Under the pieces are notes generated by a model. It did no database searches and was not told the DNA's origin. It saw nothing but the letters and a program-made list of their open reading frames with translations. 64,000 nt of DNA, from the NCBI GenBank assembly GCA_963736115.1, contig CAVTNR010000003.1:98798-162797 (forward strand). Direction: 5' to 3'. The position numbers and the translations under genes were made by a program. Positions 6,622 to 61,778 of the stretch are shown one piece after another; within the stretch, counting starts at the first letter, position 1; each line of letters begins with the position of its first letter. This stretch comes from an uncultured bacterium. GTDB taxonomy: Bacteria; Zhuqueibacterota; QNDG01; DTFT01.

Positions 6622-8553
6622 TTAGGAGGATCGCTTGGCATAGGCCAGGGCTCCGCCCGCGCGGATCAAGGCGATGTCACGGGCCGAAAGCGAATGGGTC
6701 AGGCTGGCGTCGAAGCCTTTGGTTTTATTCTTCAGCGTCAGGGCCGCCCCCTCCGGGCCGGCCTTCAGGCCGGTCACGTCGATTTCCACCTCATCGCCCT
6801 GCTGGACGCGGTCGTAGTCCGCTTCGTTCACGAAAGTCAGGGGCACGATGCCGAAATTGATGAGATTGGCCAAGTGGATGCGGGCGAACGATTTCGTGAT
6901 CACCGCCTTCACCCCGAGGAACATCGGCGCGAGCGCGGCGTGCTCCCGGCTCGAACCCTGTCCGTAATTCACGCCTCCGACGATGAAACCGCCGCCCGCG
7001 GCTTTAGCCCGTTTGGCGAAGGTCGGATCCACGGCTTCAAAAACGAATTCAGCGAGCGCGGGCACATTGGAACGGAGCGGCAGGACCTTGGCGCCTGCGG
7101 GCATGATGTGGTCCGTGGTGATGTGGTCGCCGACCTTGAGCAGGATTCCGCCCGAGAGTTTTGCGGGCAAAGGCTCTTTCACGGGAAGCGGCTTGATGTT
7201 CGGGCCGCGCAGCACTTCGACTTTTCCGGGATCCGCGGAGGGCGGCAGGATCATCGCATCGTCCACCGGGAAGCGGTCCGGCAGGGCCGGGGGCCGCACC
7301 GAAGCGCCAAGGGTCCGGGGATCGGTGATCGCGCCGGTGATCGCGGCCGCGGCCGCGGTTTCCGGACTGCAGAGGTAAACGCCGGCCGTTTTCGTGCCGC
7401 TACGACCCTCGAAATTCCGGTTGAACGTGCGGAGCGAGACCGCATTCGAAGACGGGGAAAATCCCATGCCGATGCAGGGGCCGCATACGTTCTCCAGTAA
7501 GCGGATGCCGGAATCCACGATGGCCTGCCATTCGCCGCGGTCCATCAAAGTCCGGACCACCTGCCGCGACCCGGGAGCCAGGGCGACGGACACCTCCGGA
7601 TGGACGCGTTTTCCCCTGAGCATCTGGCTGATCACGGACAGGTCGCGGAACGAAGAATTGGTGCAGCTTCCCATGGCCACCTGCTGAACCCGGGTGCCTG
7701 CGAGATCCGCGACCCGGACCACCTGGTCCGGCATGTGGGGCTTGGCGATCATGGGCTCAAGCCCGGACAGGTCGATTTCGAGAATTTCGTCGTAAGCCGC
7801 GTCCGGATCCGCGGCGAGCGGGATCCACGAGGATTCCCGGTCCTGTGCCCTGAGGAAGAGCCGGGTTTTCTCGTCGCTTGGGAAAATGGAGGTAGTGGCG
7901 CCGAGTTCCGCGCCCATGTTGGCGATAGTCGCCCTTTCCGGCACGTCCAGCGATGCCACGCCCGGTCCCGAGTACTCCATGATTTTGCCCACGCCGCCCT
8001 TGACTGTGAGCCGCCTGAGGATCTCCAGGATCACGTCCTTGGCTGAAACGAATGGATTCAGGGACCCGGACAGGCGGATATTGACGACTTTCGGCATGGT
8101 GAGGTGGAAGGGTTGTCCCGCCATGGCCAGGGCCACGTCGAGACCGCCTGCGCCGACGGCCAGCATGCCGATACCGCCGCCCGTGGGAGTATGGCTGTCC
8201 GAGCCGAGCAGGGTCCTGCCCGGAACGCCGAAGCGCTCCAGGTGCACCTGGTGGCATATGCCGTTGCCCGGTCTGGAGAAAAACAGGCCGTATTTCGACG
8301 CAAAAGACTGGAGGAAGCGGTGGTCGTCCGCGTTTTCGAATCCGTTCTGCAGCGTGTTGTGGTCCACGTAGCTCACGGACAGCTCGGTGCGGATACGGTC
8401 GATGCCCATGGCTTCAAACTGCAGATAAGCCATGGTTCCGGTGGCGTCCTGCGTCAGGGTCTGGTCGATCCCGACAGCAACAGGGGAACCGGCCTTGGGT
8501 TCCCCTTCCTTCAGATGCTGCTGGATGATTTTCCGGGTGATGGATTGTCCCAT
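6622..8553 (-). CDS. acn: Aconitate hydratase (short ~640-aa single-chain type)
   Basis: 'TQDATGTMA', 'GICHQVH', 'GSDSHT', Fe-S ligands 'GSCTN' and 'CGPCIG', 'ITTDHIMPAG', 'NYGQGSSREHAA'. Confidence 0.92.
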   Translation of the reverse strand: MGQSITRKIIQQHLKEGEPKAGSPVAVGIDQTLTQDATGTMAYLQFEAMGIDRIRTELSVSYVDHNTLQNGFENADDHRFLQSFASKYGLFFSRPGNGICHQVHLERFGVPGRTLLGSDSHTPTGGGIGMLAVGAGGLDVALAMAGQPFHLTMPKVVNIRLSGSLNPFVSAKDVILEILRRLTVKGGVGKIMEYSGPGVASLDVPERATIANMGAELGATTSIFPSDEKTRLFLRAQDRESSWIPLAADPDAAYDEILEIDLSGLEPMIAKPHMPDQVVRVADLAGTRVQQVAMGSCTNSSFRDLSVISQMLRGKRVHPEVSVALAPGSRQVVRTLMDRGEWQAIVDSGIRLLENVCGPCIGMGFSPSSNAVSLRTFNRNFEGRSGTKTAGVYLCSPETAAAAAITGAITDPRTLGASVRPPALPDRFPVDDAMILPPSADPGKVEVLRGPNIKPLPVKEPLPAKLSGGILLKVGDHITTDHIMPAGAKVLPLRSNVPALAEFVFEAVDPTFAKRAKAAGGGFIVGGVNYGQGSSREHAALAPMFLGVKAVITKSFARIHLANLINFGIVPLTFVNEADYDRVQQGDEVEIDVTGLKAGPEGAALTLKNKTKGFDASLTHSLSARDIALIRAGGALAYAKRSS

Positions 8554-8565
8554 GCGTCCTTCCGC

Positions 8566-9225
8566 TTATTCGGTGGATTCTTTCCGAGACAGGAGCTCCC
8601 GCTGTTTCCGGTTGCCCAGGTCCAGCCTGCGCAGAAGCTTCCAGGCGCCGATGAGGCCCAGACGGACGAAACCGAAGCGTTCGGTGTTCAATTCCTTGGC
8701 AATCTGGGAAGGACCCCACGAGGGGTGCTCACGCACGATTTGGAGAACCTTGTCGTCAATGCCTTCGGGAACGACTTCGGATTCCTGGGCCTTGCGCATC
8801 ACGGAATCCGCGGTCTGAAGCGCCTGATCCGAAGCTTCCTGCTCCATGGCAAGATTGACTTCCCGGCCGCCGAGGTCGAAATCGCGGATGCTTTCCTCGA
8901 CTGTGTCGTAGGCCTTGAGGATATAATGAAATTCGAGAAGTTCGAAGACTTCGTAGACGTCGGGAATCATGCGGGCCAGCTTGAGATCGCCGCCCCTTTC
9001 CCGGATGCCCTTGATTTCGCTGATGAATATGCCCCAGCCCGCGCTGGAAATATAGTCCACATTGCCCAGGTCGATAATGATGTGGACCACGCCCGTTTTC
9101 AGGAGAGAATCGAGGGCCCTTTCCAGTTCCGCGGAAGTGGTGGTGTCAATGTACCCGCCCACACGGATGACCGACACTTCGCCGAGCGTCCCCACTTTTT
9201 CCACCGATACCTGTATGCCTTCCAT
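8566..9225 (-). CDS. STAS anti-sigma-factor antagonist (RsbV/SpoIIAA-like) with C-terminal HTH-like extension
   Basis: 'GGYIDTTTS..IIDLGNVDYISSAGWG' with the conserved phospho-Ser; extra C-terminal 'IVREHPSWGPSQIAKEL'. Confidence 0.88.
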   Translation of the reverse strand: MEGIQVSVEKVGTLGEVSVIRVGGYIDTTTSAELERALDSLLKTGVVHIIIDLGNVDYISSAGWGIFISEIKGIRERGGDLKLARMIPDVYEVFELLEFHYILKAYDTVEESIRDFDLGGREVNLAMEQEASDQALQTADSVMRKAQESEVVPEGIDDKVLQIVREHPSWGPSQIAKELNTERFGFVRLGLIGAWKLLRRLDLGNRKQRELLSRKESTE

Positions 9226-9269
9226 CGGACTGCCCCCAAAAGAGATCGATAAATATATATAACATTTGA

Positions 9270-9298
9270 AATTTAATAGAAATCGGGGTCATTGTCAA
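9270..9298 (-). promoter_or_regulatory. Sigma70-type promoter upstream of the STAS gene
   Basis: Minus strand TTGACA-N17-TAAATT. Confidence 0.65.
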
Positions 9299-9337
9299 CC
9301 CTTTTTACCGGGGGCCGAGACCGGCCGGAAAAGGATT

Positions 9338-12300
9338 TCAGACCGCCTGGCTCCGGATGAGTTTCTGCATGCGTTTGATCCGCTCCAGGATGTCCGACCG
9401 TTGGGGATTCCGCTTCAGAATTTCCCCCCACTGCCAGACGGCCCGCTTGTATTCCCCCCGGTTGGCGGAGATGACGCCGAGGTTCTCCAGAACGTTTAGG
9501 TTCTCCGGATTGAGCAGACGCACCCGCTCATAGGATTCAATCGCCTTTTCCAGCTGGCCGAGCCTGTACCAGGCGTCTCCGAGGCTCTGGTACGCTTCCC
9601 AGGAATCCGGCTTTTCGTCCAGGATGCGTTTGAACTCTTCAATGGCCTTGGCGTACAGGCCCTGTCTGTAGAACCATTTGCCCGAATCCATATGGCGGCG
9701 GCTGTTCATTTCACGGAGCATGGCCGTGATGCGGCTTTCGTCGCGCGATCCCCTGGCGGAAAGGGTCGTGTCGCTGTCAAAAGGCGAGGCGTCGATGCGT
9801 TCGAAGAGACCGCCGTCAAAGGCCTCGGCGGATTCCTCCGCGAATCCAGCGAATTCCGCGTCGAAGAGCTCTCCGCTGACGGATTCGGCGATCCGATCCT
9901 CGGCATCCGCCTGGTTCTCCACGGCTGAATCGGCGGTGACGGCCGGTGCGCCGTCTTCAGGGGATTTCCCGGCCGGCACGGCGACCGCTTCGGTTCCGGA
10001 ACCGGGACTTTCTTCCAGCCAGTCGAAAAGACCGCCGAGAAGACCGTCGTCCGTTTCCGGGGACGTTGTCCCGGGTTCGGCGGCTGCGGCTGATCCGCCG
10101 GCCGCGACGGACTCCGCCGGTCCGAGGGGCGCAACGCTTTCCGCGCCCGCTCCGGACGGGGACCCCGCTGCGGCGGCGCCCGTCTCCTGCCGGAGCAGGC
10201 TTTCCTCCGGGGCGGATGCGTCCGCTCCGGAAAGCGGCGGATGCGCGACTTCCTCCGGTTCCTTTTTGATCTGCGAAGCGCGTATGCTGATCGTGGGCGC
10301 GTCATCCAGCCGGCGCGGCCGGAGAAGCGGCGGCCTCTCGCGCCGTTTTCCGGTGTCGAGAATAATCTGTCCGTCCAACGTGAGGAACGGCGTGCCCGGC
10401 GGCTTGGTCCGCTTGCCCTTTTCGCCCCGCTCCGCAAACACCTGACGGCGGTCCCGCGTGTTGAGCCGGCTCTTCACCAGCTCGTCGTAGATCCGTTTCT
10501 CGTCGAGTACGGTGAGCCCGTAGCTTTCCGTTTTCAGCTCCTCGGCGATGCGCTTGGGGCCGAAATCCGGATGTTTCTTGATGATGTCGTGTATCTTGAC
10601 CTTGTCCTCGATGGCGATATGGTTTTCCTCGACGTCGGAGCGCACGGTCAGCTCGCGCAGGCCGTCATCGCCCATCTTGTCCCACCGCCGCCGGTACTTG
10701 TAATAGGTCGAGGTCGAGACGCCCACTTTCCGGCAGGCGTCGCGCGCGCTCATGCCCTCCTCCGTGACCAGCCGGATGAGTTTCGAGCGGAGGTTGAAGA
10801 GAACGTCTTCGGCCTTCATGTTCTCCTGAATGGCCACCAGCGTGATGTCGTCGCTCTGGGCTTCTCCGCCGGTGAATTCCTTGATTTCCTCCCGGATGCG
10901 GTCCACGAGCGGATCGACCTGCATTTGGCCGCCTTTCCGGATGACGGACAGGAAGCGCTCCTCCCCGAATTTATCACGCTGGGCGTTCATCGCCTCGGTC
11001 ACCCCGTCGGTGTAGGCGATGAGCACGTCGCCCTCCTTCAGGTGGATGGTGTCCGATTCGATTGATTTGCGGAACAGGGTCTTGTCCGGCAGGTTGAGCC
11101 CGATGGGGAAGCCCCGCGGGTTCAGGTAGAAGCTCTTGTTGGTCTGGGCGCGGTACAGGATCATGGGATTGTGCCCCGCGCTCGCGTAATTGATGGTGCG
11201 GTTGTGCGAGTCGAGAATCACGTAGAACACGGTCACGAACATGCCGCGCTTCATGTCGTTGATCACGAAGTCATTGACGCGGGCGAGCACGTCGGCGGCG
11301 TTCTTGTTGCCGCGGGCCTCGGTGCGGAGCGCCGTCCGTATCATGGTCATGATCAGAGAGCCGGGAACGCCCTTTCCGGAGACGTCCGCCACGACGATGC
11401 CCAGCGTGTCCTTGTCCACCTCGACGAAGTCGAAATAGTCCCCGCCCACCTCCCGCGCGGCTTCATAGTACGAGGCGATTTCATAACCCTCGATCTCCGG
11501 GAAGGAGGAGGGAAGCAGCGTGTGCTGGATTTCCTGGGCGACCTGCATTTCCTTCTGCAGGCGTTCCTGCTCCGCCAGGTTTACCTGGGATTTCCGGAAT
11601 TTTTCAGTGATTTCATTGAAGGCGTGGGCGATTTCGCCGATCTCGTCCGACTGGTCGAATTCGACCTCGTCCTGTATTTCACCGTGGCCGGCGGCGCTGA
11701 TCCACCGGGCCAGCCGCCGCAGGGGATTCGTGATGAGAAAGACCAGCGCGAAAATGCCGGCGGCGCCGACCAGCCAGATAATGAACAGCATCCGGAGTCC
11801 GTCCAGCAAGGCGGTACGGATCTTGTGGTCGGTGACAGCCTTGTCGAACTGGAGCCGGACGCTTCCGACCGGTATTCGCATCAGCGGCGGGACGACGGCC
11901 TCCTCGATCTCGTACGCGGTCCGGCCGTCGTCCGTCCGCGTGCGCGTGACGGACGTCGAAAGCCGCGCCTCGACCGGTCCGGGCCGGTGCGGCTCGAGTA
12001 TCCGTTCGGGCGTCACCGATCCCTGAACGATGCCGGTGGAATCGATGATGAGCGCCTCAAGCAGCCAGGGCGCATTAACCCGCTGGAATTCGGCTGCGAT
12101 CCGGGCGGTCTCGATGGTTTCGTCCCGGACCAGCGACTCCACGCACTGGTGCGCCAGCGTCCGGGCAAGAGTGCCGCCGAGGGCCAGGTCGGACCGGAGG
12201 ATGCGGGAGCGCTGGTTTGCGTTCGACACGAACCACACAGCCACGGCCAGCAGGGTCCACAGGATGCCGGCGTAGACGCCGTACTGCAATTTCATCGGAA

Positions 12301-12760
12301 GACCCATGCCCGGCAGCCGGAGCTGGCGCCGCGGAAAGTGAGGGAGGTTCTTGACGAGCTTGAGCTCGTTGCCCTCCACGGTCTTCCGGTAATCCACGCC
12401 GTCGACCACGCGCCGGATGATGAAAATGCCCAGCCCGCCCTTTTTGCCGATGTCCACGTACCGCTGAAGGTCCGGGTCCCGGACCTGGCGGAGATCGAAG
12501 GTGTGTCCCTGGTCGATCAGGGAGACGGTCACATCCCGGTTGCGGATGATCATGCGGAGCGTGACGAATCCGTCCCAGTCCCGGTAGGCGTGCCGGATGA
12601 TGTTCGTCCCGCCCTCGTCGATCGCCAGCTTGAAGGAGTTGAGAATCCTCTCCGGAACGCCGTACTTGCGGCCGACATGTGTGACGAAATTCCGCATTTC
12701 CCCGAGGTATTTGACGTCCGCGGGGACCTTGCATTCTTCTTTGATGACTTTTCGGAACAT
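9338..12760 (-). CDS. Membrane multidomain partner-switching protein: RsbW-type HATPase, 2 TM with periplasmic domain, HAMP, SpoIIE/RsbU PP2C phosphatase, HTH, acidic linker, TPR
   Basis: Kinase boxes 'LAIDEGGTNIIRHAY', 'IDQG', 'GGLGIFII'; HAMP 'PLRRL..DEIGEIAHAFN'; PP2C 'VGGDYFD', 'VADVSGKG', 'SAGH', 'YTDGVTEA', 'SDDITL'; C-terminal TPR pattern. Confidence 0.88.
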   Translation of the reverse strand: MFRKVIKEECKVPADVKYLGEMRNFVTHVGRKYGVPERILNSFKLAIDEGGTNIIRHAYRDWDGFVTLRMIIRNRDVTVSLIDQGHTFDLRQVRDPDLQRYVDIGKKGGLGIFIIRRVVDGVDYRKTVEGNELKLVKNLPHFPRRQLRLPGMGLPMKLQYGVYAGILWTLLAVAVWFVSNANQRSRILRSDLALGGTLARTLAHQCVESLVRDETIETARIAAEFQRVNAPWLLEALIIDSTGIVQGSVTPERILEPHRPGPVEARLSTSVTRTRTDDGRTAYEIEEAVVPPLMRIPVGSVRLQFDKAVTDHKIRTALLDGLRMLFIIWLVGAAGIFALVFLITNPLRRLARWISAAGHGEIQDEVEFDQSDEIGEIAHAFNEITEKFRKSQVNLAEQERLQKEMQVAQEIQHTLLPSSFPEIEGYEIASYYEAAREVGGDYFDFVEVDKDTLGIVVADVSGKGVPGSLIMTMIRTALRTEARGNKNAADVLARVNDFVINDMKRGMFVTVFYVILDSHNRTINYASAGHNPMILYRAQTNKSFYLNPRGFPIGLNLPDKTLFRKSIESDTIHLKEGDVLIAYTDGVTEAMNAQRDKFGEERFLSVIRKGGQMQVDPLVDRIREEIKEFTGGEAQSDDITLVAIQENMKAEDVLFNLRSKLIRLVTEEGMSARDACRKVGVSTSTYYKYRRRWDKMGDDGLRELTVRSDVEENHIAIEDKVKIHDIIKKHPDFGPKRIAEELKTESYGLTVLDEKRIYDELVKSRLNTRDRRQVFAERGEKGKRTKPPGTPFLTLDGQIILDTGKRRERPPLLRPRRLDDAPTISIRASQIKKEPEEVAHPPLSGADASAPEESLLRQETGAAAAGSPSGAGAESVAPLGPAESVAAGGSAAAAEPGTTSPETDDGLLGGLFDWLEESPGSGTEAVAVPAGKSPEDGAPAVTADSAVENQADAEDRIAESVSGELFDAEFAGFAEESAEAFDGGLFERIDASPFDSDTTLSARGSRDESRITAMLREMNSRRHMDSGKWFYRQGLYAKAIEEFKRILDEKPDSWEAYQSLGDAWYRLGQLEKAIESYERVRLLNPENLNVLENLGVISANRGEYKRAVWQWGEILKRNPQRSDILERIKRMQKLIRSQAV

Positions 12761-12778
12761 GGATGAGCCTTCCGGTCT

Positions 12779-14755
12779 TTACTTGTTGTTCTGGAAGGTC
12801 TGGAGGCGGGCGCGCGCGCCCTGGATGGCCTCGATGATTTTCACGTTGTTGGGCTCGATGACCAGAGCCTCTTCCCAGATCCGCAGGGCGCCCGCATAAT
12901 CGCCGTCCTGGTAGGCGCGCAGGCCCTGGGAGTACCGGTCCTTTGCGTCGCGCCGCATCTCCCTGGGCGCGCCCTGGGACCGGGCGAGCGCGTTCCGGTA
13001 CAGCTCGCGCGCCTTCTGGTTCGCGGGTTCGAGTTCCGTGGCGCGCCGGAGGAAGTCGGCCGCGCCCGCGTAATCCTGCTTCTCGAAACGTTCGACCCCG
13101 GCCTGATAGGCGTTGAGGAAGCCGAATTTCTCGTCCAGGTTCTTCATCTCTTCGGACACCAGGGCGTTCAAACGGGGGGAATCGCCGGCCGTTTCGCGGG
13201 CCTGGTTCAGCACCTGGTAGGCTTCGGCGGCTTTTTCCTCCCGCACCAGCTGGCGGGCGCGGCCGATGCGGCGCTGGACCTCGCTCTCCTGGGCGCCGGC
13301 TGTGCGGCTGATGTAGCTCCGGATCTGTTCATTTTCCGGATCCCTCTCGAGCGCCTGGTTCCAGCGCCCGATGGCCTTCGAGTAGGCGCCCTTGTCGAGG
13401 AACGCCAGCCCTTCCTGGAAGCACTGACTGACGAAGGCGAGGTCTTTCTGGCGGGACTCGTTCTCCCGCGTTTCCTGCAGCAGCTGGTCTTCGCGCGCCA
13501 ACTGGGAGGCGGTTTCGAGCCGGTTGGTCTCCTCGAGCAGGCGTTTGGCTTCCGCGTGGCCGGGGTCGTCCCTCAGGACGGAGCCGAATTCGAGCCGCGC
13601 GTTGATGTAATCCGCGGACGCCAGGTGGCGTTTGCCCGCCGCCAGCGCGTCGGTGACGCGCTTACCGAGCGCCTCCCCCATCTCCTGTTCGACCCGGCGC
13701 CGCGTCTCCGCTTGGCGACGGACTTCGATGAGCCGCCTCTGTTCCGGAATGGATTTGCCGAGGAACAGGATGAGCGAAAAACGGTGGCTGCGCGGAAAGA
13801 ACGACGGATCACCGAGACGGCCGGTGGCATAGTCGATCTGGAAGAACCGGAGCGACAGTCCCGCGCCGAACGTCGGTTCGCCGTCGTCGAATCCCGCGCG
13901 CAGAAACAGGGCGTTCGCGATCGCGTACTCGGCCCCGGCGTGGATCCGGGTTTTCCGGTTCCGGCCCTGTTCGGCATCCGCCAGAATGAGAAAACGGTCC
14001 ATTCCGCCGCGCAAGAAAAGTGTTTTCGCGATTCCCGCGCGCAGTGTCGAGGGCAGGGTTTCGTATTCGCCCCCCAGCCGGAGCCGGGCGGGCAGCGCGT
14101 TGGACATTGAGGCGCCGAGATAGACATTGTGGAGGGGTGAACCTTCCCACCGGATGCGGGTGTGGACGCCGGCGTCCATTCCGAATCCCGTCGCGGACAC
14201 GTTCCCCATGACCTGCCGGTGGGTCACGAAATTGGTGCCGATGGAAATGCCGCGGAAGAGCGTCATGCCGTACCCGAGCGTCAGTTTTCCCTGCCAGTAG
14301 CCGATTTCCCCCATATCCACGGGGACCGTTCCGGCTGCGGCGCCGATCTCCGCGATCCGGCGGATTCCTTCTACGCCGATGCGGGACACGCCGATCCCGA
14401 AAGTGCCGGCGGAAAGCGTCGGATGGATGTAATGGACGGCCTGATACTGGACATCCTCGAAAAGTTCGGTGTGCGACAGAAGCAGACCACGCTGCTGCAC
14501 GACGACCATGCCCGCGGGATTCCAGAGGGGGGCGGACGGGTCCTGCGGGAACGCGACGGCCGCGTTCCCCAAACCCAGAGCCCGGGCATCCGCGCCGATG
14601 CGGAACGGATCCTCGATCCCCGCCCCGCCGTCACCGGCTGACAGACTCCCGGCGCAGGCCGCAAAGCAGACCATCCGGGCGATTCCAAGCCGGGTCCGCC
14701 GGCCGACCCCTGCGGGCCCGGTGACGATTCCCCTGTGGCGATTTGGTTTTCTCAT
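12779..14755 (-). CDS. PorV/PorQ (UPF0164)-like beta-barrel protein fused to C-terminal TPR repeats
   Basis: 'GADARALGLGNAAVA..WNPAGM' PorV-family N-motif; barrel strands ending 'SHRFSLILFLG'; about 300 aa of TPR-like helices ('AIGRWNQALERDPEN', 'IWEEALVIEPNN'). Confidence 0.8.
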   Translation of the reverse strand: MRKPNRHRGIVTGPAGVGRRTRLGIARMVCFAACAGSLSAGDGGAGIEDPFRIGADARALGLGNAAVAFPQDPSAPLWNPAGMVVVQQRGLLLSHTELFEDVQYQAVHYIHPTLSAGTFGIGVSRIGVEGIRRIAEIGAAAGTVPVDMGEIGYWQGKLTLGYGMTLFRGISIGTNFVTHRQVMGNVSATGFGMDAGVHTRIRWEGSPLHNVYLGASMSNALPARLRLGGEYETLPSTLRAGIAKTLFLRGGMDRFLILADAEQGRNRKTRIHAGAEYAIANALFLRAGFDDGEPTFGAGLSLRFFQIDYATGRLGDPSFFPRSHRFSLILFLGKSIPEQRRLIEVRRQAETRRRVEQEMGEALGKRVTDALAAGKRHLASADYINARLEFGSVLRDDPGHAEAKRLLEETNRLETASQLAREDQLLQETRENESRQKDLAFVSQCFQEGLAFLDKGAYSKAIGRWNQALERDPENEQIRSYISRTAGAQESEVQRRIGRARQLVREEKAAEAYQVLNQARETAGDSPRLNALVSEEMKNLDEKFGFLNAYQAGVERFEKQDYAGAADFLRRATELEPANQKARELYRNALARSQGAPREMRRDAKDRYSQGLRAYQDGDYAGALRIWEEALVIEPNNVKIIEAIQGARARLQTFQNNK

Positions 14756-17700
14756 CTATTTCATGACCGCAATTTTGGTTTTCCGGATTTGTCCGTCGGC
14801 CGGTTTCATGAAAAGGAAATACACCCCGTTCAGGACGGCTCGCGACCGGTCGTTCCGGCCGTCCCACAGCAGAGTGTGCAGTCCGGCCGAGGCGCGGTCG
14901 TCCGAGGCGTCGAAAGAAACGGACCAGACCGGTTCGCCCGTGAGCGTGAAAAGGCGGAAGGAGACAGTCGTTCTTTTTTCCAGATAGTAATGAATGGCCG
15001 TGGGGCCGTCCGACGGACTGAATGGATTCGGGCTGTTCCACAGGGCCAGCTCCGTTTCCGGCTCGAATATCTTTTTCGGGTCCGAGCGCAGGGATGTCCA
15101 GTCCTCTCCGGCGGGGGTCTTGACCGCGACGCTGTTGCCGGAGTTGGGTTCCCGGGCGTCAACGAAATCCCCGCTCGGGATGTTGAGCTGGAAGTATCCG
15201 GTTTCAGGCGCGTCGGAAATGCGGCCGAGCACGGCGATGGACACGCTTTCGCCCACGGCAATGCTCGGACGTTTGCTCAGGGACAGAAGGATCGGATTCT
15301 CGCTGATCACCGATGTGGACCCGAAAATGTCCGTGCTATCGGCGTTTGAAACCGCGGTCAGCCTGGAGATCACCGAAGCCGGGGGAATCGGATCGCCGAA
15401 CCGGTCTTCGAACTGGAATCTCAAACCTTCGATCGCGATGCGGCCGCTGCCTTCCATGCCGCGGTTGGTCGCGGTGACCACCAGCAGCTTGACCCCGTCC
15501 TGGCCCGGCATGATGGTGCTGAGACTCCAGGCGGGCAGGGGATTGGCTTCAATCGAGAGCCAGGCGCCGGCCATGCTCACGGCCACGGCGTCATTGGGGC
15601 GGCTCACATAAGCCGGGCGGCCCGTGTTCTCGTCCGCCGGTATGACGGAGAGCCGGAAACGGATGGTCACCGCCTCGACCGACTGCCGGGACGGCGCCTT
15701 GACGGTCCATGCGGCAGTTCCCCCCGCAACGGCGCGCGTAAGCGGATCGAGCGTCGTGTATCCTTCGGGCAGGGTCTCCAGGGTCACGGCGGTTAAGCCC
15801 GTGGTGTCGGCCTCGCCGATATTTTCGAGCCGGGTGGTGATCACGAATTCCTGACCGACCGCGACGGTCCCGGTCTGAGCGACATCGGCCGGCGCGGTGA
15901 TGGCGGCGCTCATGGAGAGGTCGGCGCGGCGGACCGTGGCGATGGAGAAGGCCGCCCAGAAATCGGGAACGGGCACGTCCTGCTGAAGCGAATCCATGCC
16001 CTGCACCCGGACCCGTATGTCCGCTTTCGGCGACGCGGCCGGGGGCGCCTCGACCCGCCAGGACAGTGACCAGGACGTGAGGTTTTTCACGATAGCGTCC
16101 GAGGTGGTGTATCCGGCCGGAAGCTGCAGGGTCGCGGTGATGTCCCGTGCGTTGGAATGAAATATCTGCGTGGTCACGATAAAGGACTGGCTCGCGGATA
16201 CGATTCCGTCCGAGGCGCCGGATGGTTCCGTGACCGCCAGAAGCGCCGAGAGATTGCTGGGCACGGTGATCACGCGGATGCGCGCCTGACTCTGCTCGAC
16301 ATCCGCGGTCGCGCCGGCATTGAAGTCGTTCGGAATCCGGAACAGTTCAGCGGCTACCCATTCGGTGTCCGGCGCGGAGACCGGCGACCGGACGCTCCAT
16401 TCCGCCGGGAATCCCGGCGCGATGCCGGCCGTGTCGCTTTCGGATATTCTTTCGAACCGGTCCGCCAGCACCAGGCGGACGCCCGCGATGCCGTCCGTCC
16501 GTCCGGAGCCGAAATTCATGAGTTCGGCCCGTACGGTGAAAGTCTGGCCGGCGGACACGCGGCCGTCCGGCGTGCTCAGGCCGAGCGAGAGGGAGAGCCG
16601 GACCGGCGTCTGCACCGTCACCTGGGCCGTGGAGTCCAGAGCCGCGCCCACGGGCACGGCCTGGCGGGGCGACCCGATGAATGCCTGAAGGATATCGGCG
16701 CGGAATGTTTCGGCCGCGTTTTCAGCAGCCGGCGCCTTCACGGCGAAGACGGCCGTGTCCCACTGTGCGGGCGTCAGCCGGCTGATGGAAACCGGGGAGG
16801 CCTCGATCGCGGAACCGCCGTCCGTTGTCAGGCCGACGCGGATGTCCTCGACGTTCAGGCCGAGTCCGTTTTCCAGGATCACCAGCACCTCGAAATCCTG
16901 CCCCGTATTGACCGTCGCGTTGCCCGCGTCGTCCGCGGCCGCGGAACGGACGCGGGTGGAGATGATGCGGAAAGACTGGTCGGACCGTACGAACACCGAA
17001 GTTTCCTCTCCGGCGTTCAGGACCGCGCGCGAGTTCCGATCCCGGCCGGTCACCGCCGCCTCTACGCCCGCGATGCCGCCGAGGCTTCCGGTGGAGGTGA
17101 CGGTATAGACCAGGGCGTCGGTCCTTCCGCCGGCCAGGATGAGGCCTCCCTGCGAGAGCGCGGCCGGCGGCGTGACGCTGTAATCCGACTGTTTCAGGCC
17201 GTTGATGCGGAATGTCAGATCCGAGGCCTTCGGCGGGTCGAACTGAATCGGCGCCTGCCCCTGGTTCCGTACCGCCACCTCAACCGTCCAGGGCTCCTTC
17301 TGACCGCCGATGAGTCTGTCCGAAGAGGCGGCGACCCTGGATATGCGCAGGATTGCCGGATTCTGGATGACCACGACGGACGTCGCCGTGACCTCGGGCA
17401 CCAGATCCTTGGTGTTGTCCCTGAAACCGTCCGCATAGAGGGTGAAGGTCTCCCCCGTGCTCGGCGATGCGGCGGCCTGGAAGCTGAAATCCACCCAGAC
17501 CAGCCCGCCGCCGGGCAGCCAGTCCACGGTTTGCACGGATGCGGATGTGAACATCGACAGGCCGTCGGTGTTCATGATGAGCTGGAGGTTGCGGAGGCCG
17601 TCCCCGCCGGTGTTCTGCAGGTATACCCGGAGCGTGTCCTCGGCGTAGACATTGACATAGGGGCGGTTCGGTGCCAGGTTGTCGATGCGGAGAATGCTCA

Positions 17701-20700
17701 GGCTGGCCGGCGTTTCCATGAGAATGGAGGCTTTGACGCCGTAGGTCGTGTCGGATTTGCACGTCCGGCCGGTGTTGATTTCCCTTCCGGTCACCAGGGA
17801 CGTGATCTGACAGATTCCGGTAGGGTTCGATGCGGAACGTTCGACGATGTAGCGGAGGCTGTCCGACGCGCCGCCCGGCAGGATCCAGCCGCCCCGGCCG
17901 AGTTCCTGCAGGCCCGACAGATCCCATCCGGATCCCGCGGAAAAGAGGAGAAAGGTGACCGAACGGCTCGTGTCGATCCGGACGGCGCTTCCTCCGGCAT
18001 TGGTCAGCCGGACCGAAACGGTCCAGGCGATGTCCTGACCCAGCGTGACCTCGGGCTGTGAGACGCGGATCGCGTCGATGCGCAGGCGGGCGGAATCCTG
18101 GACCGCGATGCCGGTGAAACCCTGATCGCTGACCACGCCCCCGGTGCCGCCGTCGGTGAAGAACGCAACAGCCTCGACCGTGACGTCGCCCGGGGACCGG
18201 CCGGTGCGGTCCACCCGGACGGAGAGCGTATCCTCGCCGTTCCCGGCCAGAACCGCGGTTCCGCTGCGGCGGAGGACGGCCGGAAGCACGAGCTGAAAGT
18301 CATTCTGGCGCACGCCGGCGATCCGGAACCGCACCCACAGGCTGTCGAACCGGGCGCTGCTGCTGGCCAGGTTGCGGACGGCCACGTTCAGGGTCCAGTC
18401 CTGCGTCTGACCCGCGGTCACTTCCGCGGCTGAAGCGGTACATGCGGTGATGCGGATGCCCGGGGGCGCATTGACGTCGAAGACGTTGGACGCGCCGGTT
18501 TCCGAACCGCCCGTCCGGACCACGCTGATGCGGTTGCCGGCCCGCGGTAAACCGATGGTGACGCCGCCGGACCACTGGCCCGCGGTAAAGGACCCGCTGC
18601 GGACCGGGCTGATGGAGCCGCTCAGGTCGGAAATGTCCGCGGTTCCGGTGAACGAGGTGGCCTGGCTGCCGAAACGGTCCGCTGCGATCACGATGACGGT
18701 GAAGGGCACCTTGGCGACCTGACTGCCGACCGTGGCGATCAAGAAATGATCGACGGGCCCCGGAAGCACATTGAAGAAGTTGGAGATGCCCGAATGTCCG
18801 GCGCCGTCCGAGGCCGTCACGGTTACGTCCTGGCCCGCGCGCAGAATCATGACGGATTCCGTGCGGACGCCTGCGACGAAGGCGCCGCTGACGGCCGGTG
18901 AAATCGTAGCCGCGCCGTCGGCAAGCGCGACGGTTCCAGTGAAGCCGGTGGCCGTGTTGCCGTACGCGTCGAGCGCGGTGACCGTGACGGGAAAGGCGAT
19001 GCCCGCGGCCTTGGGGCTTCCGATCAGCCCGATCGTAAAGGAGGCCACGCCCGCGGGCCTGACCGTGAATTCATTGGATGTGCCGCTCTTGCCGCCGCCG
19101 GTCACGGTCAGCGAGTTGCCCGTGTAGCTGCGGGTGATGGTCACGCTGCCGTTCCACAGGCCGGACGCGAATGTGATCGACGCGGGCGCGCCGGTTCCGG
19201 TTTCGTCGGCCAGGGCCGCCGTGCCGGCGTACGAGGTGACGGGATTGCCGTTGGAGTCGACCGCGCGGATGACCACGGCGAACGCGACGCCCGCGGTGCG
19301 GTTGTCCGGCACCGGATCGATGACGAAATGATCCACGGTGCTCGCGATCACGGCAAACGGATTGGAGAGGCCGGTCTGGACTCCGCCGGTCCGAGTGAAG
19401 GTCAGCCGGTCCGACGTCTGGGTCTGCGCAATGGTCAGATTGCCGGTCCACACGCCGTTGGTGAAAGCGCCGCTGACCGTGGGCGATACGGTTCCGGCGC
19501 CGGAATGAGTCACGGAAACCGTGTTCCCCGCTCCGCTGAAGGAGGTCACGGTGTTGTTGTTCGCGTCCTGCGCGGTCACCGTGACGCTGAAGGGCATGCC
19601 GGCCGCAGGATCGGCGATGGTTCCCACGGCGAAATGGTCCAGCGAGCCGTGGGTCACGTTGAAATAATTGGAGACGCCCGTGTGCGAGCCGGCGTCCGCG
19701 GCCGTGATGCGCACGTCGTTGCGGGCCTGGGTGATGGTCAGGGTCTGGGTCCGGACGCCCGCGGCGAACGCGCCGGTAACGGAGGGCGAAACTGAAACCG
19801 ATCCGCCGTTCAGGTTCACGGTCGCCGTGAACCCGGTTGCGGTGTTGCCGTAAGCGTCCAGGGCGGTGAAGGTCACGGAAAAACCGGTGCCTGCCGTCCT
19901 CGGGCTGGGGATGTCGGACAGCCTGAATGAGGCCACCGCGGCCGGGACGACCGTGAAGGTTCCGGATGTGCCGCTCTTGCCGGCTCCGGTCACGGTGAGA
20001 AAATCGCCGGTGAGGGATTTCGTGATGGTGACCGCGCCGGTCCAGATGCCGGACGCGAACGTGACCTGCTGGGGCGTGATCGTTCCGGACTCGTCCTTGA
20101 GATTGACCGTGCCGTTGAAAGCGGTCACGGTGTTCCCGCTCGCGTCCACGGCCCGCACGGTCACCGAGAACGGAGCCCCGGCCGTCTGGGAGGGAGAGAC
20201 GGAAGAAAAAACGAAGTGATCCACGGCGCTGGCCGTGATGTTGAACGGATTCGACGTGGCCGCGTGGCCCGAACCGTCGTCCGCCATGAGATAGAGGCCG
20301 GACTGCGTCTGGGAAATGGTCACCGGGCCGGTCCAGGAGCCGCTGTAGAAATTGCCGCTCTGGGCCGGAGTCAGGACGCCCGAACCGGTGTAACTCAGGT
20401 TGACGCGGCGCCCGAGTCCGGTGAACGCGGTGACGATATTTTCAAAAGCGTCGAACGCGGTGATGGTGACCGTGAAAGGCATACCGGCCGCTCCGTCCGC
20501 GACCGGCGAAAAGCCGAAATGATCGAGGCCGGCCGCGTCCACGTTGAAATATCCGGATAGACCGGTGCGGCCCGAACCGGCGGCCGTGACCTGAATGTCC
20601 TGGCCGGTGGTCAGGATGGAGACGTTGCCGGACCACGCTCCGGCCGTGAATGCCGGCGTGACCGCGGTGCCGGTGGTCTGGATTTCGAGGGAAGCTGTTT

Positions 20701-21613
20701 TTTCGGAAAGTGTGACGGTTCCGATGAAATCGGTTTTCGCGTTTCCGTACGTGTCTTTCGCCGTGAGCGTCAGACCGAACCAGGCGCCCGCGGTCTGGGG
20801 GCTGGTGATGGAGTTGAATTCGAAGCGGTCGAGGACGGTCGGGTCCACCCGGAAATTTGAAGTGGTGCCGCTTTTCCCCGATGCCCGGGCCGTGATGTTG
20901 TCCGCGGCCGTTGTTTTGAAGACCTGGACATTGCCGCTCCAGGTGCCGGAGGTGAAGGCCGTGGTCTGCAGGGGGGAGAGAGTGCCGGTGAGATCCGAGA
21001 AGTCCGCGGTCGAGACAAAGGACGTGACTGTGTTATTGTTTGCGTCCTGGGCCGTGACCGTGACGGTGAATGCGTTGCCCGCGGTCTGGGATGCGCCGGG
21101 TCCGGTCACGGCGAAATGGTCCAGCGGTCCGGGCGTGACCGTGAAGGCGGTGAAGGATCCGGAATCCAGAATGATGTCCGCGGCGTCCGTGGTCTGCACG
21201 GTGACGGTGTAGGACGACGACACCGAGGGCCCGTTCGTGATATTCGCGATCTGGACCGTTTCCGTCTGGCCCGAGGCCTGCGTCGTTCCGCCGGAACGGG
21301 CGATGGTCACGGTGCTCCCGGAAGCGGATTCGATCGTCAACGATCCATCCATGGTGGACGATGAGGCGATGACCGCGGTGGACACGCTGAATCCGCCCGG
21401 ATAGGTGACCCGGATTTTACCGTCCGCGGGTATGGCGGTAGACGTGGTAAAAGTCACCGTATGGATGGCCGCGGCGCCGGCCGCGGAATTCGAAGCCGTC
21501 ACCGATACGGATACGAGCTGGGCCTGGGCGGAAACGGCGAAGAAAAGCATCGACAGGAGAAGCCGTCCCGCGGAAAAACGGAAACGCAGAATATTCGGGC
21601 ACCGGTATTTCAC
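14756..21613 (-). CDS. Giant (2285 aa) secreted/surface protein of tandem Ig-like repeats with C-terminal FlgD-Ig/T9SS-like sorting domain
   Basis: Signal peptide ('SAQAQ'); nine ~100-aa repeats 'LDHF..AG.PF.VTVTA.D..GN'; about eight 'V..GQ...V...N.G' domains; C-terminus 'NSPNPFSP..FTLTGEPV..WDGRN..NGVYF..KIAVMK'. Confidence 0.85.
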   Translation of the reverse strand: MKYRCPNILRFRFSAGRLLLSMLFFAVSAQAQLVSVSVTASNSAAGAAAIHTVTFTTSTAIPADGKIRVTYPGGFSVSTAVIASSSTMDGSLTIESASGSTVTIARSGGTTQASGQTETVQIANITNGPSVSSSYTVTVQTTDAADIILDSGSFTAFTVTPGPLDHFAVTGPGASQTAGNAFTVTVTAQDANNNTVTSFVSTADFSDLTGTLSPLQTTAFTSGTWSGNVQVFKTTAADNITARASGKSGTTSNFRVDPTVLDRFEFNSITSPQTAGAWFGLTLTAKDTYGNAKTDFIGTVTLSEKTASLEIQTTGTAVTPAFTAGAWSGNVSILTTGQDIQVTAAGSGRTGLSGYFNVDAAGLDHFGFSPVADGAAGMPFTVTITAFDAFENIVTAFTGLGRRVNLSYTGSGVLTPAQSGNFYSGSWTGPVTISQTQSGLYLMADDGSGHAATSNPFNITASAVDHFVFSSVSPSQTAGAPFSVTVRAVDASGNTVTAFNGTVNLKDESGTITPQQVTFASGIWTGAVTITKSLTGDFLTVTGAGKSGTSGTFTVVPAAVASFRLSDIPSPRTAGTGFSVTFTALDAYGNTATGFTATVNLNGGSVSVSPSVTGAFAAGVRTQTLTITQARNDVRITAADAGSHTGVSNYFNVTHGSLDHFAVGTIADPAAGMPFSVTVTAQDANNNTVTSFSGAGNTVSVTHSGAGTVSPTVSGAFTNGVWTGNLTIAQTQTSDRLTFTRTGGVQTGLSNPFAVIASTVDHFVIDPVPDNRTAGVAFAVVIRAVDSNGNPVTSYAGTAALADETGTGAPASITFASGLWNGSVTITRSYTGNSLTVTGGGKSGTSNEFTVRPAGVASFTIGLIGSPKAAGIAFPVTVTALDAYGNTATGFTGTVALADGAATISPAVSGAFVAGVRTESVMILRAGQDVTVTASDGAGHSGISNFFNVLPGPVDHFLIATVGSQVAKVPFTVIVIAADRFGSQATSFTGTADISDLSGSISPVRSGSFTAGQWSGGVTIGLPRAGNRISVVRTGGSETGASNVFDVNAPPGIRITACTASAAEVTAGQTQDWTLNVAVRNLASSSARFDSLWVRFRIAGVRQNDFQLVLPAVLRRSGTAVLAGNGEDTLSVRVDRTGRSPGDVTVEAVAFFTDGGTGGVVSDQGFTGIAVQDSARLRIDAIRVSQPEVTLGQDIAWTVSVRLTNAGGSAVRIDTSRSVTFLLFSAGSGWDLSGLQELGRGGWILPGGASDSLRYIVERSASNPTGICQITSLVTGREINTGRTCKSDTTYGVKASILMETPASLSILRIDNLAPNRPYVNVYAEDTLRVYLQNTGGDGLRNLQLIMNTDGLSMFTSASVQTVDWLPGGGLVWVDFSFQAAASPSTGETFTLYADGFRDNTKDLVPEVTATSVVVIQNPAILRISRVAASSDRLIGGQKEPWTVEVAVRNQGQAPIQFDPPKASDLTFRINGLKQSDYSVTPPAALSQGGLILAGGRTDALVYTVTSTGSLGGIAGVEAAVTGRDRNSRAVLNAGEETSVFVRSDQSFRIISTRVRSAAADDAGNATVNTGQDFEVLVILENGLGLNVEDIRVGLTTDGGSAIEASPVSISRLTPAQWDTAVFAVKAPAAENAAETFRADILQAFIGSPRQAVPVGAALDSTAQVTVQTPVRLSLSLGLSTPDGRVSAGQTFTVRAELMNFGSGRTDGIAGVRLVLADRFERISESDTAGIAPGFPAEWSVRSPVSAPDTEWVAAELFRIPNDFNAGATADVEQSQARIRVITVPSNLSALLAVTEPSGASDGIVSASQSFIVTTQIFHSNARDITATLQLPAGYTTSDAIVKNLTSWSLSWRVEAPPAASPKADIRVRVQGMDSLQQDVPVPDFWAAFSIATVRRADLSMSAAITAPADVAQTGTVAVGQEFVITTRLENIGEADTTGLTAVTLETLPEGYTTLDPLTRAVAGGTAAWTVKAPSRQSVEAVTIRFRLSVIPADENTGRPAYVSRPNDAVAVSMAGAWLSIEANPLPAWSLSTIMPGQDGVKLLVVTATNRGMEGSGRIAIEGLRFQFEDRFGDPIPPASVISRLTAVSNADSTDIFGSTSVISENPILLSLSKRPSIAVGESVSIAVLGRISDAPETGYFQLNIPSGDFVDAREPNSGNSVAVKTPAGEDWTSLRSDPKKIFEPETELALWNSPNPFSPSDGPTAIHYYLEKRTTVSFRLFTLTGEPVWSVSFDASDDRASAGLHTLLWDGRNDRSRAVLNGVYFLFMKPADGQIRKTKIAVMK

Positions 21614-21794
21614 GTGGGGAAAACCGTCCTTTCAGAAGCGAGATTCCATTCCAAAAGGTTCATATTTGCAAAGAGCATACCAGCCCCGGAATTGTTTGTA
21701 AACTCTTTAATAACAAATGTGGTTTGTGGTCGGTTTCCGGCCGATTCCCGGTCCGTGCGCGTTTTTCCATCAGTCTCTAACCTTTTGATTCGTC

Positions 21795-21823
21795 TTGATT
21801 TTTCTTTCTTTTTTTGTTATATT
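21795..21823 (+). promoter_or_regulatory. Sigma70-type promoter
   Basis: TTGATT-N17-TATATT with TG extended -10, ending 9 nt before ATG 21833. Confidence 0.55.
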
Positions 21824-21832
21824 TATCCGTTT

Positions 21833-59138: not shown

Positions 59139-59140
59139 CC

Positions 59141-60445: not shown

Positions 60446-60549
60446 ATGACGGTGGCATTCCCCTGTCACGGATTAGGTTCCTTTCGGGAGGAGGACTGCC
60501 CGTATTCATTCCGCTGAATTAACCGGGGACGGACATCGACGCATCAAGA

Positions 60550-61767: not shown

Positions 61768-61778
61768 AAGCGACGTCT

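Follow-up and report, generated by a model that had tools for sequence, protein, structure and literature searches.

Inspection of a 64,000-nucleotide stretch of DNA (the window) from an uncultured bacterium of the Zhuqueibacterota (GenBank assembly GCA_963736115.1, contig CAVTNR010000003.1, positions 98,798 to 162,797 of the forward strand) reveals a cassette of four minus-strand open reading frames (ORFs), named P1, P2, P3 and P4, which joins a candidate type IX secretion system (T9SS) cargo and its putative shuttle to the components of a partner switch. P1 is a giant protein with a C-terminus resembling a sorting domain, P2 is a barrel of the PorV/PorQ family that carries an arm of tetratricopeptide repeats (TPRs), P3 is a membrane protein in which an RsbW-type kinase is fused to a PP2C phosphatase, and P4 is a STAS protein with a helix-turn-helix (HTH) tail. 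On the evidence of synteny, the cassette is real, ancient and widespread across phyla of the FCB group, the window holding its KSB1 version. Its best reading, which is held with about even confidence, is as an envelope-spanning relay, and the cassette points to an unstudied coupling between cell surface and gene control. Taken separately, partner switches and type IX cargo/shuttle pairs have been well studied; no paper in the literature searched joins the two.

Conservation was assessed by synteny, with only those loci counted whose contig reaches far enough. A P3 ortholog was found in 41 of 41 KSB1 genomes searched. Across 35 KSB1 loci, a barrel gene was present in 29 of 29, a P1 ortholog with the C-terminal domain (CTD) upstream of P2 in 28 of 28, and a STAS gene no more than 6 kb away in 27 of 30; 23 of 25 loci had the complete set of three. 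The three loci without a linked STAS gene belong to one genus (g5), in which a 60-62% identical P4 lies on another contig. Three divergent P3 paralogs, found in large KSB1 genomes, have no barrel, CTD or STAS neighbors. A profile scan returned at least 80 loci, at least 13 of which have the P3 architecture (one of them, L071, on the same contig as the KSB1 locus L053). Among the P3-type loci listed, with architectures confirmed by Pfam, barrel and CTD genes lie upstream in 12 of 12 and a STAS gene is present in 10 of 11; these loci are labelled Calditrichota, Latescibacterota, Eisenbacteria, Ignavibacteria and, once, “Omnitrophota”. Barrel and CTD genes accompany only 4 of the 54 other PP2C loci among the matches listed (one truncated cassette and three variants), and no cultured organism is named as a carrier of the cassette among those matches.

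The same pattern was observed in the phylum that includes genome G041, where a P3-like gene was detected in 127 of 151 genomes at E ≤ 1e-90, ∼30 of the genes being long with an HTH and ∼95 short (∼685 aa) without one. CTD and barrel genes lie upstream in 16 of the 20 loci examined there, and a STAS gene lies downstream in 16 of 20. Occurrence in every KSB1 genome searched and in so many of this phylum makes a core envelope or lifestyle function likely in several poorly cultured phyla. Given that flanking genes vary from lineage to lineage, the conserved unit is the cassette itself and not general collinearity. The original prediction had regarded the four genes as one signalling system whose synteny should extend to related phyla, and P1-P2-P3 are indeed co-conserved in KSB1 and far beyond. 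Its converse, that the genes would not be co-conserved or that the surface protein/PorV pair and the Rsb pair would occur independently, does not hold for the orthologous set because co-conservation extends well beyond KSB1, although paralogous pairs and Rsb sets do occur alone.

Variants of the cassette were also seen. A Zixibacteria-labelled locus (L107:9290-13728, plus strand) encodes a giant CTD protein, a PorV-TPR protein and a 554-aa PP2C protein without the N-terminal kinase, followed by a 253-aa fusion of STAS and RsbW, an unfused STAS protein and a histidine kinase; similar variants occur at L098 and L114, and the L107 genome additionally has a STAS-HTH ortholog on a different contig. 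A Latescibacterota-labelled locus (L075:9956-14362, plus strand) encodes a 1468-aa P3 ortholog with three STAS domains fused after the HTH, and the genes after it encode an AAA_31 ATPase resembling ParA/MinD, a TPR protein and a free STAS protein. An AAA_31 gene between P3 and STAS is found in L081, L170, L171 and L172 as well.

In the window, as originally described, the four genes are co-oriented and the first three are closely packed, the ORF list giving gaps of 0 bp (P1/P2), 18 bp (P2/P3) and 112 bp (P3/P4). Across 26 KSB1 loci, with distances computed from longest-ORF starts, the P2-P3 junction ranges from -59 to +23 bp and the P1-P2 junction from -38 to +77 bp. P4 has a conserved promoter element of its own: 23 of 26 KSB1 loci carry it between P3 and P4, compared with a mean of 0.7 and a maximum of 4 in 200 shuffles. 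From this element and the tight P1/P2/P3 junctions we infer two transcription units, one comprising P1-P2-P3 and the other P4 with the genes downstream. P3 may also be translationally coupled to P2, a feature that belongs to the relay reading and shares its roughly even standing.

The absence of a sigma factor gene from the window, noted in the original prediction, was upheld, as no Sigma70 family was matched by the 37 window ORFs scanned (8 at E ≤ 0.01; 29 of at least 110 aa at E ≤ 1e-5). No sigma factor was present in any cassette examined, other phyla included, the genome at large not having been searched for a released partner.

P3 consists, in order, of an RsbW-type kinase, a transmembrane (TM) segment at residues 160-180, a putative periplasmic domain of ∼140 aa, a TM region at residues 316-348, HAMP, PP2C, HTH, a low-complexity linker and TPR. 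Pfam matches and TM segments thereby agree with its earlier description as an inner-membrane protein combining RsbW, HAMP and PP2C with a periplasmic domain, which had overlooked the transposase-type HTH and the C-terminal TPR. Among 14 KSB1 orthologs, no variation is seen at kinase residues E49, N53, H57, D83, G85 and G108-G111, which we take to be the N, G1 and G2 boxes, or at PP2C residues D441, D459, G462, D585, D637 and D638, so that the metal-binding aspartates are kept. The kinase falls below the RsbW equivalog cut-offs (54.7 versus 145 bits), and P3 likewise fails the models for SiaA (NF038263, 74.9 bits) and RssB (NF045505, 59.8 bits), each with a cut-off of 700.

The HTH of P3 matches the N-terminal region of IS481 transposases (E 4e-14; profile positions 2-114 of 284; 52.7 versus 224 bits). 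It resembles the N-terminal DNA-binding part of IS481/IS630 transposases, the DDE catalytic domain not being matched, and because the match is limited to the DNA-binding part it is taken to be a domesticated HTH and not a transposase. This module is kept across phyla but is not found in the ∼685-aa short form of the G041 phylum. The C-terminal TPR of P3 cross-matches P2 arms in L158, L161, L162, L163, L169 and L176 (tblastn, E 1e-4 to 4e-6), and the two TPR regions may have a common origin.

The predicted periplasmic domain of P3 has a Cache fold. Its model (pLDDT 96.4) comprises a long N-terminal helix, a central sheet and a C-terminal helix leading into the membrane, and a Foldseek search gave 31 PDB matches at E ≤ 1e-3, all those listed being extracytoplasmic sensor domains. 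The best of these was the extracellular domain of WalK (9a5d and 5is1, at 4e-7 and 2e-6, respectively).

P4 contains a STAS domain (Pfam, residues 15-111) that exceeds the TIGR00377 cut-off (63.9 versus 53.45). Serines 60 and 61, presumably equivalent to S58 of SpoIIAA, are invariant in 18 orthologs. By sequence, the parts of a partner switch appear to be in place, namely a STAS protein with its serine, a kinase with its GHKL residues and a phosphatase with its PP2C aspartates; with all of these intact, the enzymes look active. The tail of P4 (residues 149-219) shares homology with the HTH_32 region of P3 (hhalign 97.8%, E 1.1e-12), which supports the earlier description of the fourth gene product as a STAS protein with a DNA-binding tail. 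The fusion of a STAS protein to an apparently domesticated transposase HTH would constitute a sigma-independent design of output. The DNA-binding output first proposed is thus retained in part: the module is present on the STAS protein, but it is found on P3 too, and P4 is predicted to be a separate transcription unit.

The STAS domain is the more conserved part of the switch, being 72-88% identical within KSB1 and 70-72% identical to Calditrichota, compared with 58-66% for PP2C and 48-62% for the kinase. Identity of 70-88% between phyla hints at an additional conserved partner. A second STAS-HTH paralog is encoded elsewhere in the genome of the window, termed G000 and 87% complete, at G000:C12:395183-395875 (L155:8175-8876, minus strand); it is 233 aa long, 56% identical in the STAS domain, and flanked by a 534-aa ORF (glycogen synthase-like by reading of its translation) and by Wza/Wzc-like genes, of which the Wza-like gene was confirmed by Pfam and the Wzc-like call comes from the translation only. 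Similar STAS-HTH paralogs are present in other KSB1 genomes.

Over residues 52-329, the barrel of P2 scores 97.2 bits with the PorV/PorQ subfamily model PorV_fam (NF033709), above the cut-off of 90 (98.5 bits in the genome search). In addition, a profile of 23 P2 orthologs matches the solved PorV structure 6h3i_F (E 2e-19, profile positions 17-245). The equivalog models were failed by P2, with 30.3 versus 250 bits for PorV (NF033710), 31.1 versus 220 for PorQ (NF033711) and 76.3 versus 325 for PorV2 (NF052325). On these profile scores, P2 is a member of the PorV/PorQ family, yet none of the named orthologs PorV, PorQ and PorV2. The barrel is followed by a tail of ∼320 aa with Pfam TPRs at residues 446-637, and the TPR families together with the NF033709 score bear out the PorV-like barrel with a long TPR tail first described here. 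Every lineage examined retains this architecture, a barrel with a ∼300-aa tail and a total length of 606-714 aa. As the tail is C-terminal to an outer-membrane barrel, it is likely to be periplasmic.

P1 begins with a hydrophobic, signal-like segment (residues 18-38). A D/A-H/S-F motif recurs in nine units between residues 165 and 955 at a spacing of 96-102 aa, and this repeat region is the least conserved part of the protein (25-54% identity within KSB1). The middle region, 24-41% identical across KSB1, probably consists of CARDB/DUF11-like sandwiches; an Atlas search with it reached a score of 0.87 at best, returned clusters without names and was uninformative. Full-length P1 matched nothing in Pfam or NCBIfam, so that the label “Ig-repeat” derives from the repeat pattern and from weak Filamin/Big_3_3 matches (E ∼2e-3). 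An apparent in-frame fusion of P1 and P2 in L040 was rejected, as the tblastn match had overrun a stop codon and the two ORFs are separate.

With CHU_C (PF13585) and FlgD_ig, both of which have a cut-off of 27, the CTD of P1 scored below threshold (13.2 and 13.0 bits, respectively), and it gave no TIGR04183 match at E ≤ 1e-3, while the genome gave 112 such matches. Its best NCBIfam match was the tail of PorU (E 6e-5). By tblastn, the domain resembles 31 further CTDs encoded in its genome, with identities of 29-40% and E-values from 1e-7 to 1e-11, and at least 8 of the 11 listed non-self matches coincide with TIGR04183 passes. A motif, NxPNPFG...WDGxN..G..V.NGVY...K.A, is common to 28 aligned orthologous P1 tails. 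The model of the CTD (pLDDT 85.8) is a seven-strand β-sandwich for which Foldseek returned PorZ (5m11, 3.2e-3), PorU (6za2, 5.8e-3) and FlgD (1e-3 to 1e-2), with unrelated Ig-like folds ranking equally. P1 hence combines homology to bona fide CTDs of its genome, a position at the extreme C-terminus (residues 2190-2285 of 2285) and an N-terminal signal segment, and its tail is read here as a divergent type IX-like CTD that is homologous to the genome's sorting domains. The original label of an Ig-repeat protein with a T9SS/FlgD-type C-terminus is therefore sound as to size and repeats and not as to any family for the whole protein, and its C-terminal part applies to a domain that lies below the hidden Markov model cut-offs yet is homologous to genome CTDs.

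Components of a T9SS are encoded in G000, including SprA (823 bits), PorU (840 bits), 15 PorV_fam matches over cut-off and >100 TIGR04183 CTDs. Searches with three models detected neither GldL nor GldM (the PorL/M motor) in this genome, which is 87% complete, and GldK was sub-threshold, so that dependence of P1 on a T9SS is putative.

A link between the TPR arm and the Cache sensor was explored by complex prediction, a check suggested with the original prediction. For P2 residues 341-658 with P3 residues 181-318, the score was 0.42 (0.42, 0.40 and 0.44 in individual runs), compared with 0.00 for the best of three controls; at least 78% of contacts recur between runs, with a partner pLDDT of 86 or more. 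The mark set for the complex score is reached by 58 of 80 solved complexes and by 2 of 110 mismatched pairs, and at scores ≤0.60 by only 7 of the 80 solved complexes and by both passing mismatches. The prediction lends weak support to physical contact between arm and sensor. Three loci that have neither barrel nor CTD protein (L166, L167 and L177) encode an exported, TPR-only homologue of the P2 arm (215-292 aa) directly before P3, and the persistence of this protein beside P3 backs the TPR-Cache link. Whereas the cytoplasmic domains are 58-80% identical, the Cache domain varies, which fits a co-evolving protein partner, although variability is also usual for envelope domains in general. A mirror-tree comparison of TPR and Cache domains gave r 0.876, the highest of 10 domain pairs (partial Mantel 0.65, with 0 of 2000 permutations reaching the value; 21 taxa), and was given no weight because of the fast rate class common to envelope domains and the kinship of the taxa.

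These observations can be accommodated by the following relay. P1, with its Sec signal, β-sandwich arrays and CTD homologous to type IX sorting domains, would be a giant cell-surface cargo, and P2 its dedicated PorV-family shuttle or anchor, from which the ∼320-residue TPR arm would hang into the periplasm. The Cache domain of P3 would read the state of this arm and hence of the cargo or shuttle, and HAMP would shift the balance between phosphatase and kinase. P4 would be the STAS substrate at Ser60/61, its phosphorylation deciding whether it is kinase-bound at the membrane or free. Free P4 would act via its HTH in KSB1 and, in Ignavibacteria-type relatives, via the neighboring diguanylate cyclase and polysaccharide-export genes. 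With this predicted topology, parts of the cassette would occupy every compartment from surface to cytoplasm, as first proposed, and the cassette is a testable candidate route from outer-membrane events to the cytoplasm in FCB bacteria.

Several observations weigh against this relay. The CTD of P1 fails every curated sorting-domain model tried (TIGR04183/PF18962 for type A and PF13585 for type B), and no PorL/M motor was found in the 87% complete G000. A complex score of 0.42 falls in a band in which predictions are more often wrong than right unless the contact was likely beforehand, and the mirror-tree signal is confounded by rate class. P4, with its conserved promoter, is predicted to form a separate transcription unit; it is unlinked in genus g5 and not within 6 kb in L069. 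The same genome also has a stand-alone cargo/PorV-like pair (G000:C8) and a PP2C-STAS-RsbW set (G000:C22). Finally, small-molecule sensors (CitA, DcuS and DctB) are among the top fold matches of the P3 sensor.

This last point underlies the main rival, in which co-regulation takes the place of contact. P3 would then be a Cache chemosensor for a periplasmic small molecule (e.g. a carboxylate), with P4 regulating the adjacent adhesin/shuttle operon and, in other lineages, cyclic di-GMP/polysaccharide genes, and the TPR arm would serve secretion or anchoring rather than signalling. Given that CitA (2j80) and DcuS (3by8) were matched at 7e-5, along with DctB and the periplasmic domain of Chlamydia RsbU (6mab, 9e-4), a metabolite input fits the Cache fold equally well. 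Moreover, sCache_3_2 (PF17203) is matched by 4 of 32 sensor orthologs (best E 6e-8; no Pfam family at E ≤ 0.1 for the window domain), aconitase (after a 12-bp gap in the window) and isocitrate dehydrogenase follow P4 in KSB1, regulators are commonly encoded next to their targets, and the TPR-Cache complex score is weak. By contrast, an alignment of 32 Cache sequences has no invariant column (≥90% only at D65 and G124), unlike the sensor of one universal metabolite; exported TPR-only proteins remain beside P3 where barrel and cargo are gone; the P2-P3 junction is ≤23 bp in 26 of 26 loci; and the aconitase/isocitrate dehydrogenase neighborhood is seen only within KSB1. Co-regulation without contact is, on this balance, considered unlikely.

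A second alternative reverses the direction of the relay. P3 would integrate cytoplasmic signals, namely its own kinase/STAS state and, in lineages with a GGDEF neighbor, cyclic di-GMP, and its periplasmic domain would grip or release the P2 arm, thereby setting retention, release or secretion of P1, a mode of inside-out adhesin control for which the Lap system is the model. The synteny, coupling and weak TPR-Cache contact that suggest the outside-in relay are equally compatible with it, the cytoplasmic mass of P3 far exceeds its periplasmic mass, and 16 of 20 loci in the G041 phylum have a neighboring GGDEF gene. However, HAMP between membrane and PP2C is the usual outside-in arrangement and the cassette encodes no effector such as a periplasmic protease, which leaves inside-out control highly improbable. 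Least probable of all is that P1-P2 is not a type IX pair, P2 being a FadL/PorV-fold barrel with another role (e.g. a TPR envelope tether), P1 an S-layer-like coat exported otherwise and the partner switch a monitor of general envelope integrity: the equivalog shortfalls of P2, the failure of the P1 CTD with TIGR04183, CHU_C and FlgD_ig, the missing GldL and GldM and a near-universal, single-copy distribution in KSB1 (41 of 41), as expected of a housekeeping envelope function, are outweighed by the SprA, PorU, 15 PorV_fam and >100 TIGR04183 matches of G000, by the BLAST similarity of the P1 CTD to 31 genome CTDs and by the passage of P2 over the PorV_fam cut-off and its match to solved PorV.

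The envelope-spanning relay may be extended to a bolder and rather doubtful proposal, in which the cassette would be an ancestral trans-envelope device of the FCB superphylum. Here, the TPR arm of the shuttle would dock on the Cache domain, so that load, presence or strain of the adhesin would be converted into STAS phosphorylation and from there into HTH-dependent transcription or a cyclic di-GMP/matrix response. If true, the cassette would be a surface-contact sense assembled from T9SS and partner-switch parts.

Genomic context offers some indication of the output. An HTH is present on P3 in KSB1, Calditrichota, Eisenbacteria, Latescibacterota and some Ignavibacteria, and on P4 too in KSB1 and Calditrichota. 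Of 20 loci in the G041 phylum, 16 have a GGDEF gene after STAS and 15 a Wza-like gene; genes for a TPR protein, an AAA_31 ATPase and a deacetylase of polysaccharides often come next.

Comparison with known systems reveals partial likenesses. SypE of Vibrio fischeri is a cytoplasmic protein with a receiver domain, and SypE-SypA is without the membrane sensor, HTH and T9SS-type neighbors of the cassette. Like P3 with P4, SypE is a dual serine kinase/phosphatase acting on one STAS serine (S56, compared with S60/61 here); no known sigma factor is involved, and the pair belongs to a polysaccharide/biofilm locus, comparable with the STAS-HTH paralog near Wza/Wzc (PMC8256260). The HsbR-HsbA-HsbD system of Pseudomonas aeruginosa and CrsR-CrsA of Shewanella combine PP2C and an RsbW-type kinase/anti-sigma in one polypeptide that acts on a STAS protein, as in P3, and the phosphorylation state of the STAS protein selects its partner (PMC6482189). 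In Pseudomonas, phosphorylated HsbA binds the diguanylate cyclase HsbD, so that a diguanylate cyclase is one output, as may be compared with the GGDEF genes here (PMC6482189). Hsb/Crs receive their input from a phosphorelay through a receiver domain, whereas P3 has a TM-Cache-TM-HAMP arrangement; the domain order also differs (the kinase is N-terminal in P3), and neither an HTH nor an outer-membrane or surface partner is described for Hsb/Crs (PMC6482189). No sigma or anti-sigma target is known for the cassette, in a further difference from Hsb/Crs. In the RsbU-RsbV-RsbW system of Chlamydia, a membrane PP2C protein with a periplasmic Cache-like sensor feeds the partner switch, as P3 is predicted to do, but the kinase is a separate protein, control of a sigma factor is proposed, and no fused kinase, HTH or outer-membrane partner is described (PMC11619594; bioRxiv 10.1101/2022.05.13.491914). 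The best fold match of the P3 sensor is relevant in that WalK has an extracytoplasmic Cache-type domain governed by protein partners, YycH and YycI, and not by a small ligand. It differs from P3 in being a Firmicutes histidine kinase and in having membrane proteins rather than TPR arms as partners.

In concept only, the cassette recalls FecA-FecR-FecI, in which a periplasmic extension of an outer-membrane barrel touches an inner-membrane regulator, and LapA-LapD-LapG, in which a giant adhesin is governed via a HAMP-bearing inner-membrane protein. The Fec and Lap proteins belong to entirely different families, and the cassette is without a TonB box, an ECF sigma factor or a periplasmic protease. 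On the secretion side, T9SS type B substrates are often encoded beside their cognate shuttle, and the pairs of a type B CTD protein with a PorP/SprF-like protein resemble P1-P2 in that the gene for a large surface protein is followed by one for a barrel of the PorV/PorP clan, here with a gap of 0 bp (PMC12618676). P2 differs from such partners in belonging to the PorV/PorQ family and not to PorP/SprF and in its ∼320-aa putative periplasmic TPR arm; the P1 CTD resembles type-A-like genome tails, and the pair is joined here to a signalling enzyme. No paper linking a T9SS cargo or shuttle with a partner switch, or describing such a cassette, was found in a literature search that had most subscription journals outside its reach; none was found that pairs KSB1 with type IX secretion or T9SS with a STAS domain, and PorV with SpoIIE gave nothing relevant. 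Taken together, the HTH on P3 and P4, the GGDEF and Wza-like neighbors, the Hsb and Syp parallels and the Wza/Wzc-associated paralog favor control of surface, adhesion or matrix functions as the likely role of the cassette.

Table 1. Coordinates of the cassette genes, their domains and candidate promoters in the window
Feature	Residues	Position	Strand	Basis
P1, 2285-aa putative secreted giant protein, GTG start		14756..21613	-	ORF and translation
P1, nine β-sandwich-like repeats of ∼100 aa	∼160-1050	18464..21136	-	Motif spacing; weak Filamin/Big_3_3 matches
P1, non-repeat middle region	1051-2150	15164..18463	-	Weak DUF11 matches, E 0.024
P1, C-terminal sandwich resembling a sorting domain	2190-2285	14759..15046	-	BLAST, motif, model
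P2, 658-aa PorV/PorQ-family outer-membrane protein with TPR tail (predicted)		12779..14755	-	ORF and HMM matches
P2, PorV-family barrel	52-329	13769..14602	-	NF033709 match; profile match to 6h3i_F
P2, TPR arm, putatively periplasmic	341-658	12782..13735	-	Pfam TPR families
P3, 1140-aa predicted bifunctional membrane serine kinase/phosphatase		9338..12760	-	ORF and domain matches
P3, RsbW-type GHKL serine kinase domain	12-137	12350..12727	-	HATPase_c_2, E 9e-24, 84.3 bits
P3, predicted periplasmic single-Cache/PDC sensor	181-318	11807..12220	-	TM segments, model, Foldseek
P3, HAMP	342-386	11603..11737	-	PF00672, E 3.7e-8
P3, PP2C (SpoIIE) phosphatase	450-645	10826..11413	-	PF07228, E 1.5e-51, 175.6 bits
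P3, transposase-type bipartite HTH	658-790	10391..10789	-	HTH_23 and HTH_32 at 658-754
P3, C-terminal TPR after low-complexity linker, putatively cytoplasmic	1015-1125	9386..9718	-	Pfam
P4, 219-aa STAS protein with HTH_32-like tail		8566..9225	-	ORF, Pfam, hhalign
Candidate sigma-70-like promoter 5' of P1		21674..21702	-	TTTACA-17-TATGCT, 9/12, consensus match only
Predicted P4 promoter		9270..9298	-	TTGACA-17-TAAATT, 10/12

The coordinates of the cassette are collected in Table 1. Downstream of P4, a gene for aconitase (6622-8553, minus strand) begins after 12 bp and is followed by that for isocitrate dehydrogenase (5293-6585, minus strand). Aconitase, mostly with isocitrate dehydrogenase, follows P4 in most order-level KSB1 loci, and isocitrate dehydrogenase follows it in several phylum-level ones; neither was seen next to P4 outside KSB1 in the loci compared. 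Because this neighborhood is limited to KSB1, the two enzymes were rejected as members of the cassette. Their adjacency to a cassette whose P3 sensor has a citrate/dicarboxylate-sensor-like fold may be coincidence or a KSB1-specific regulatory tie.

On the other side of the cassette, a gene for a patatin-POTRA-Omp85 fusion (21461-24472, plus strand) is divergent from P1. It was rejected as a fifth member, being absent from 35 of 35 KSB1 loci (with a reach of at most ∼2.5 kb past P1). In the Calditrichota loci L070, L072 and L073, a homologue follows the cassette at a distance of 7-8 kb, preceded by genes for DUF4159 and DUF4175.

The stand-alone pair of G000:C8 (4135-10877; L157:136-6878, plus strand) consists of a 1266-aa VWA/CARDB/DUF11 protein with a FlgD_ig tail and, 2 bp later, a 979-aa protein with a PorV_fam match and CARDB, with no Rsb genes nearby.

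The remainder of the window comprises housekeeping genes (SecA, TopA, DnaG, RecJ, HprK and others) and two polysaccharide-export genes, Wza-like (Poly_export/SLBB) and Wzz/GNVR chain-length or kinase-like, at 59033-62963 (plus strand), ∼40 kb from the cassette. A 517-aa protein (24898-26451, plus strand) with a sub-threshold PorV_fam score (31.6 versus 90 bits) and a TraF_2 match may be a barrel of the FadL/PorV clan. A 565-aa protein (34845-36542, plus strand) with two lamin-tail domains has a C-terminal domain of the FlgD_ig type (32.5 bits) and is likely to be a further type IX cargo.

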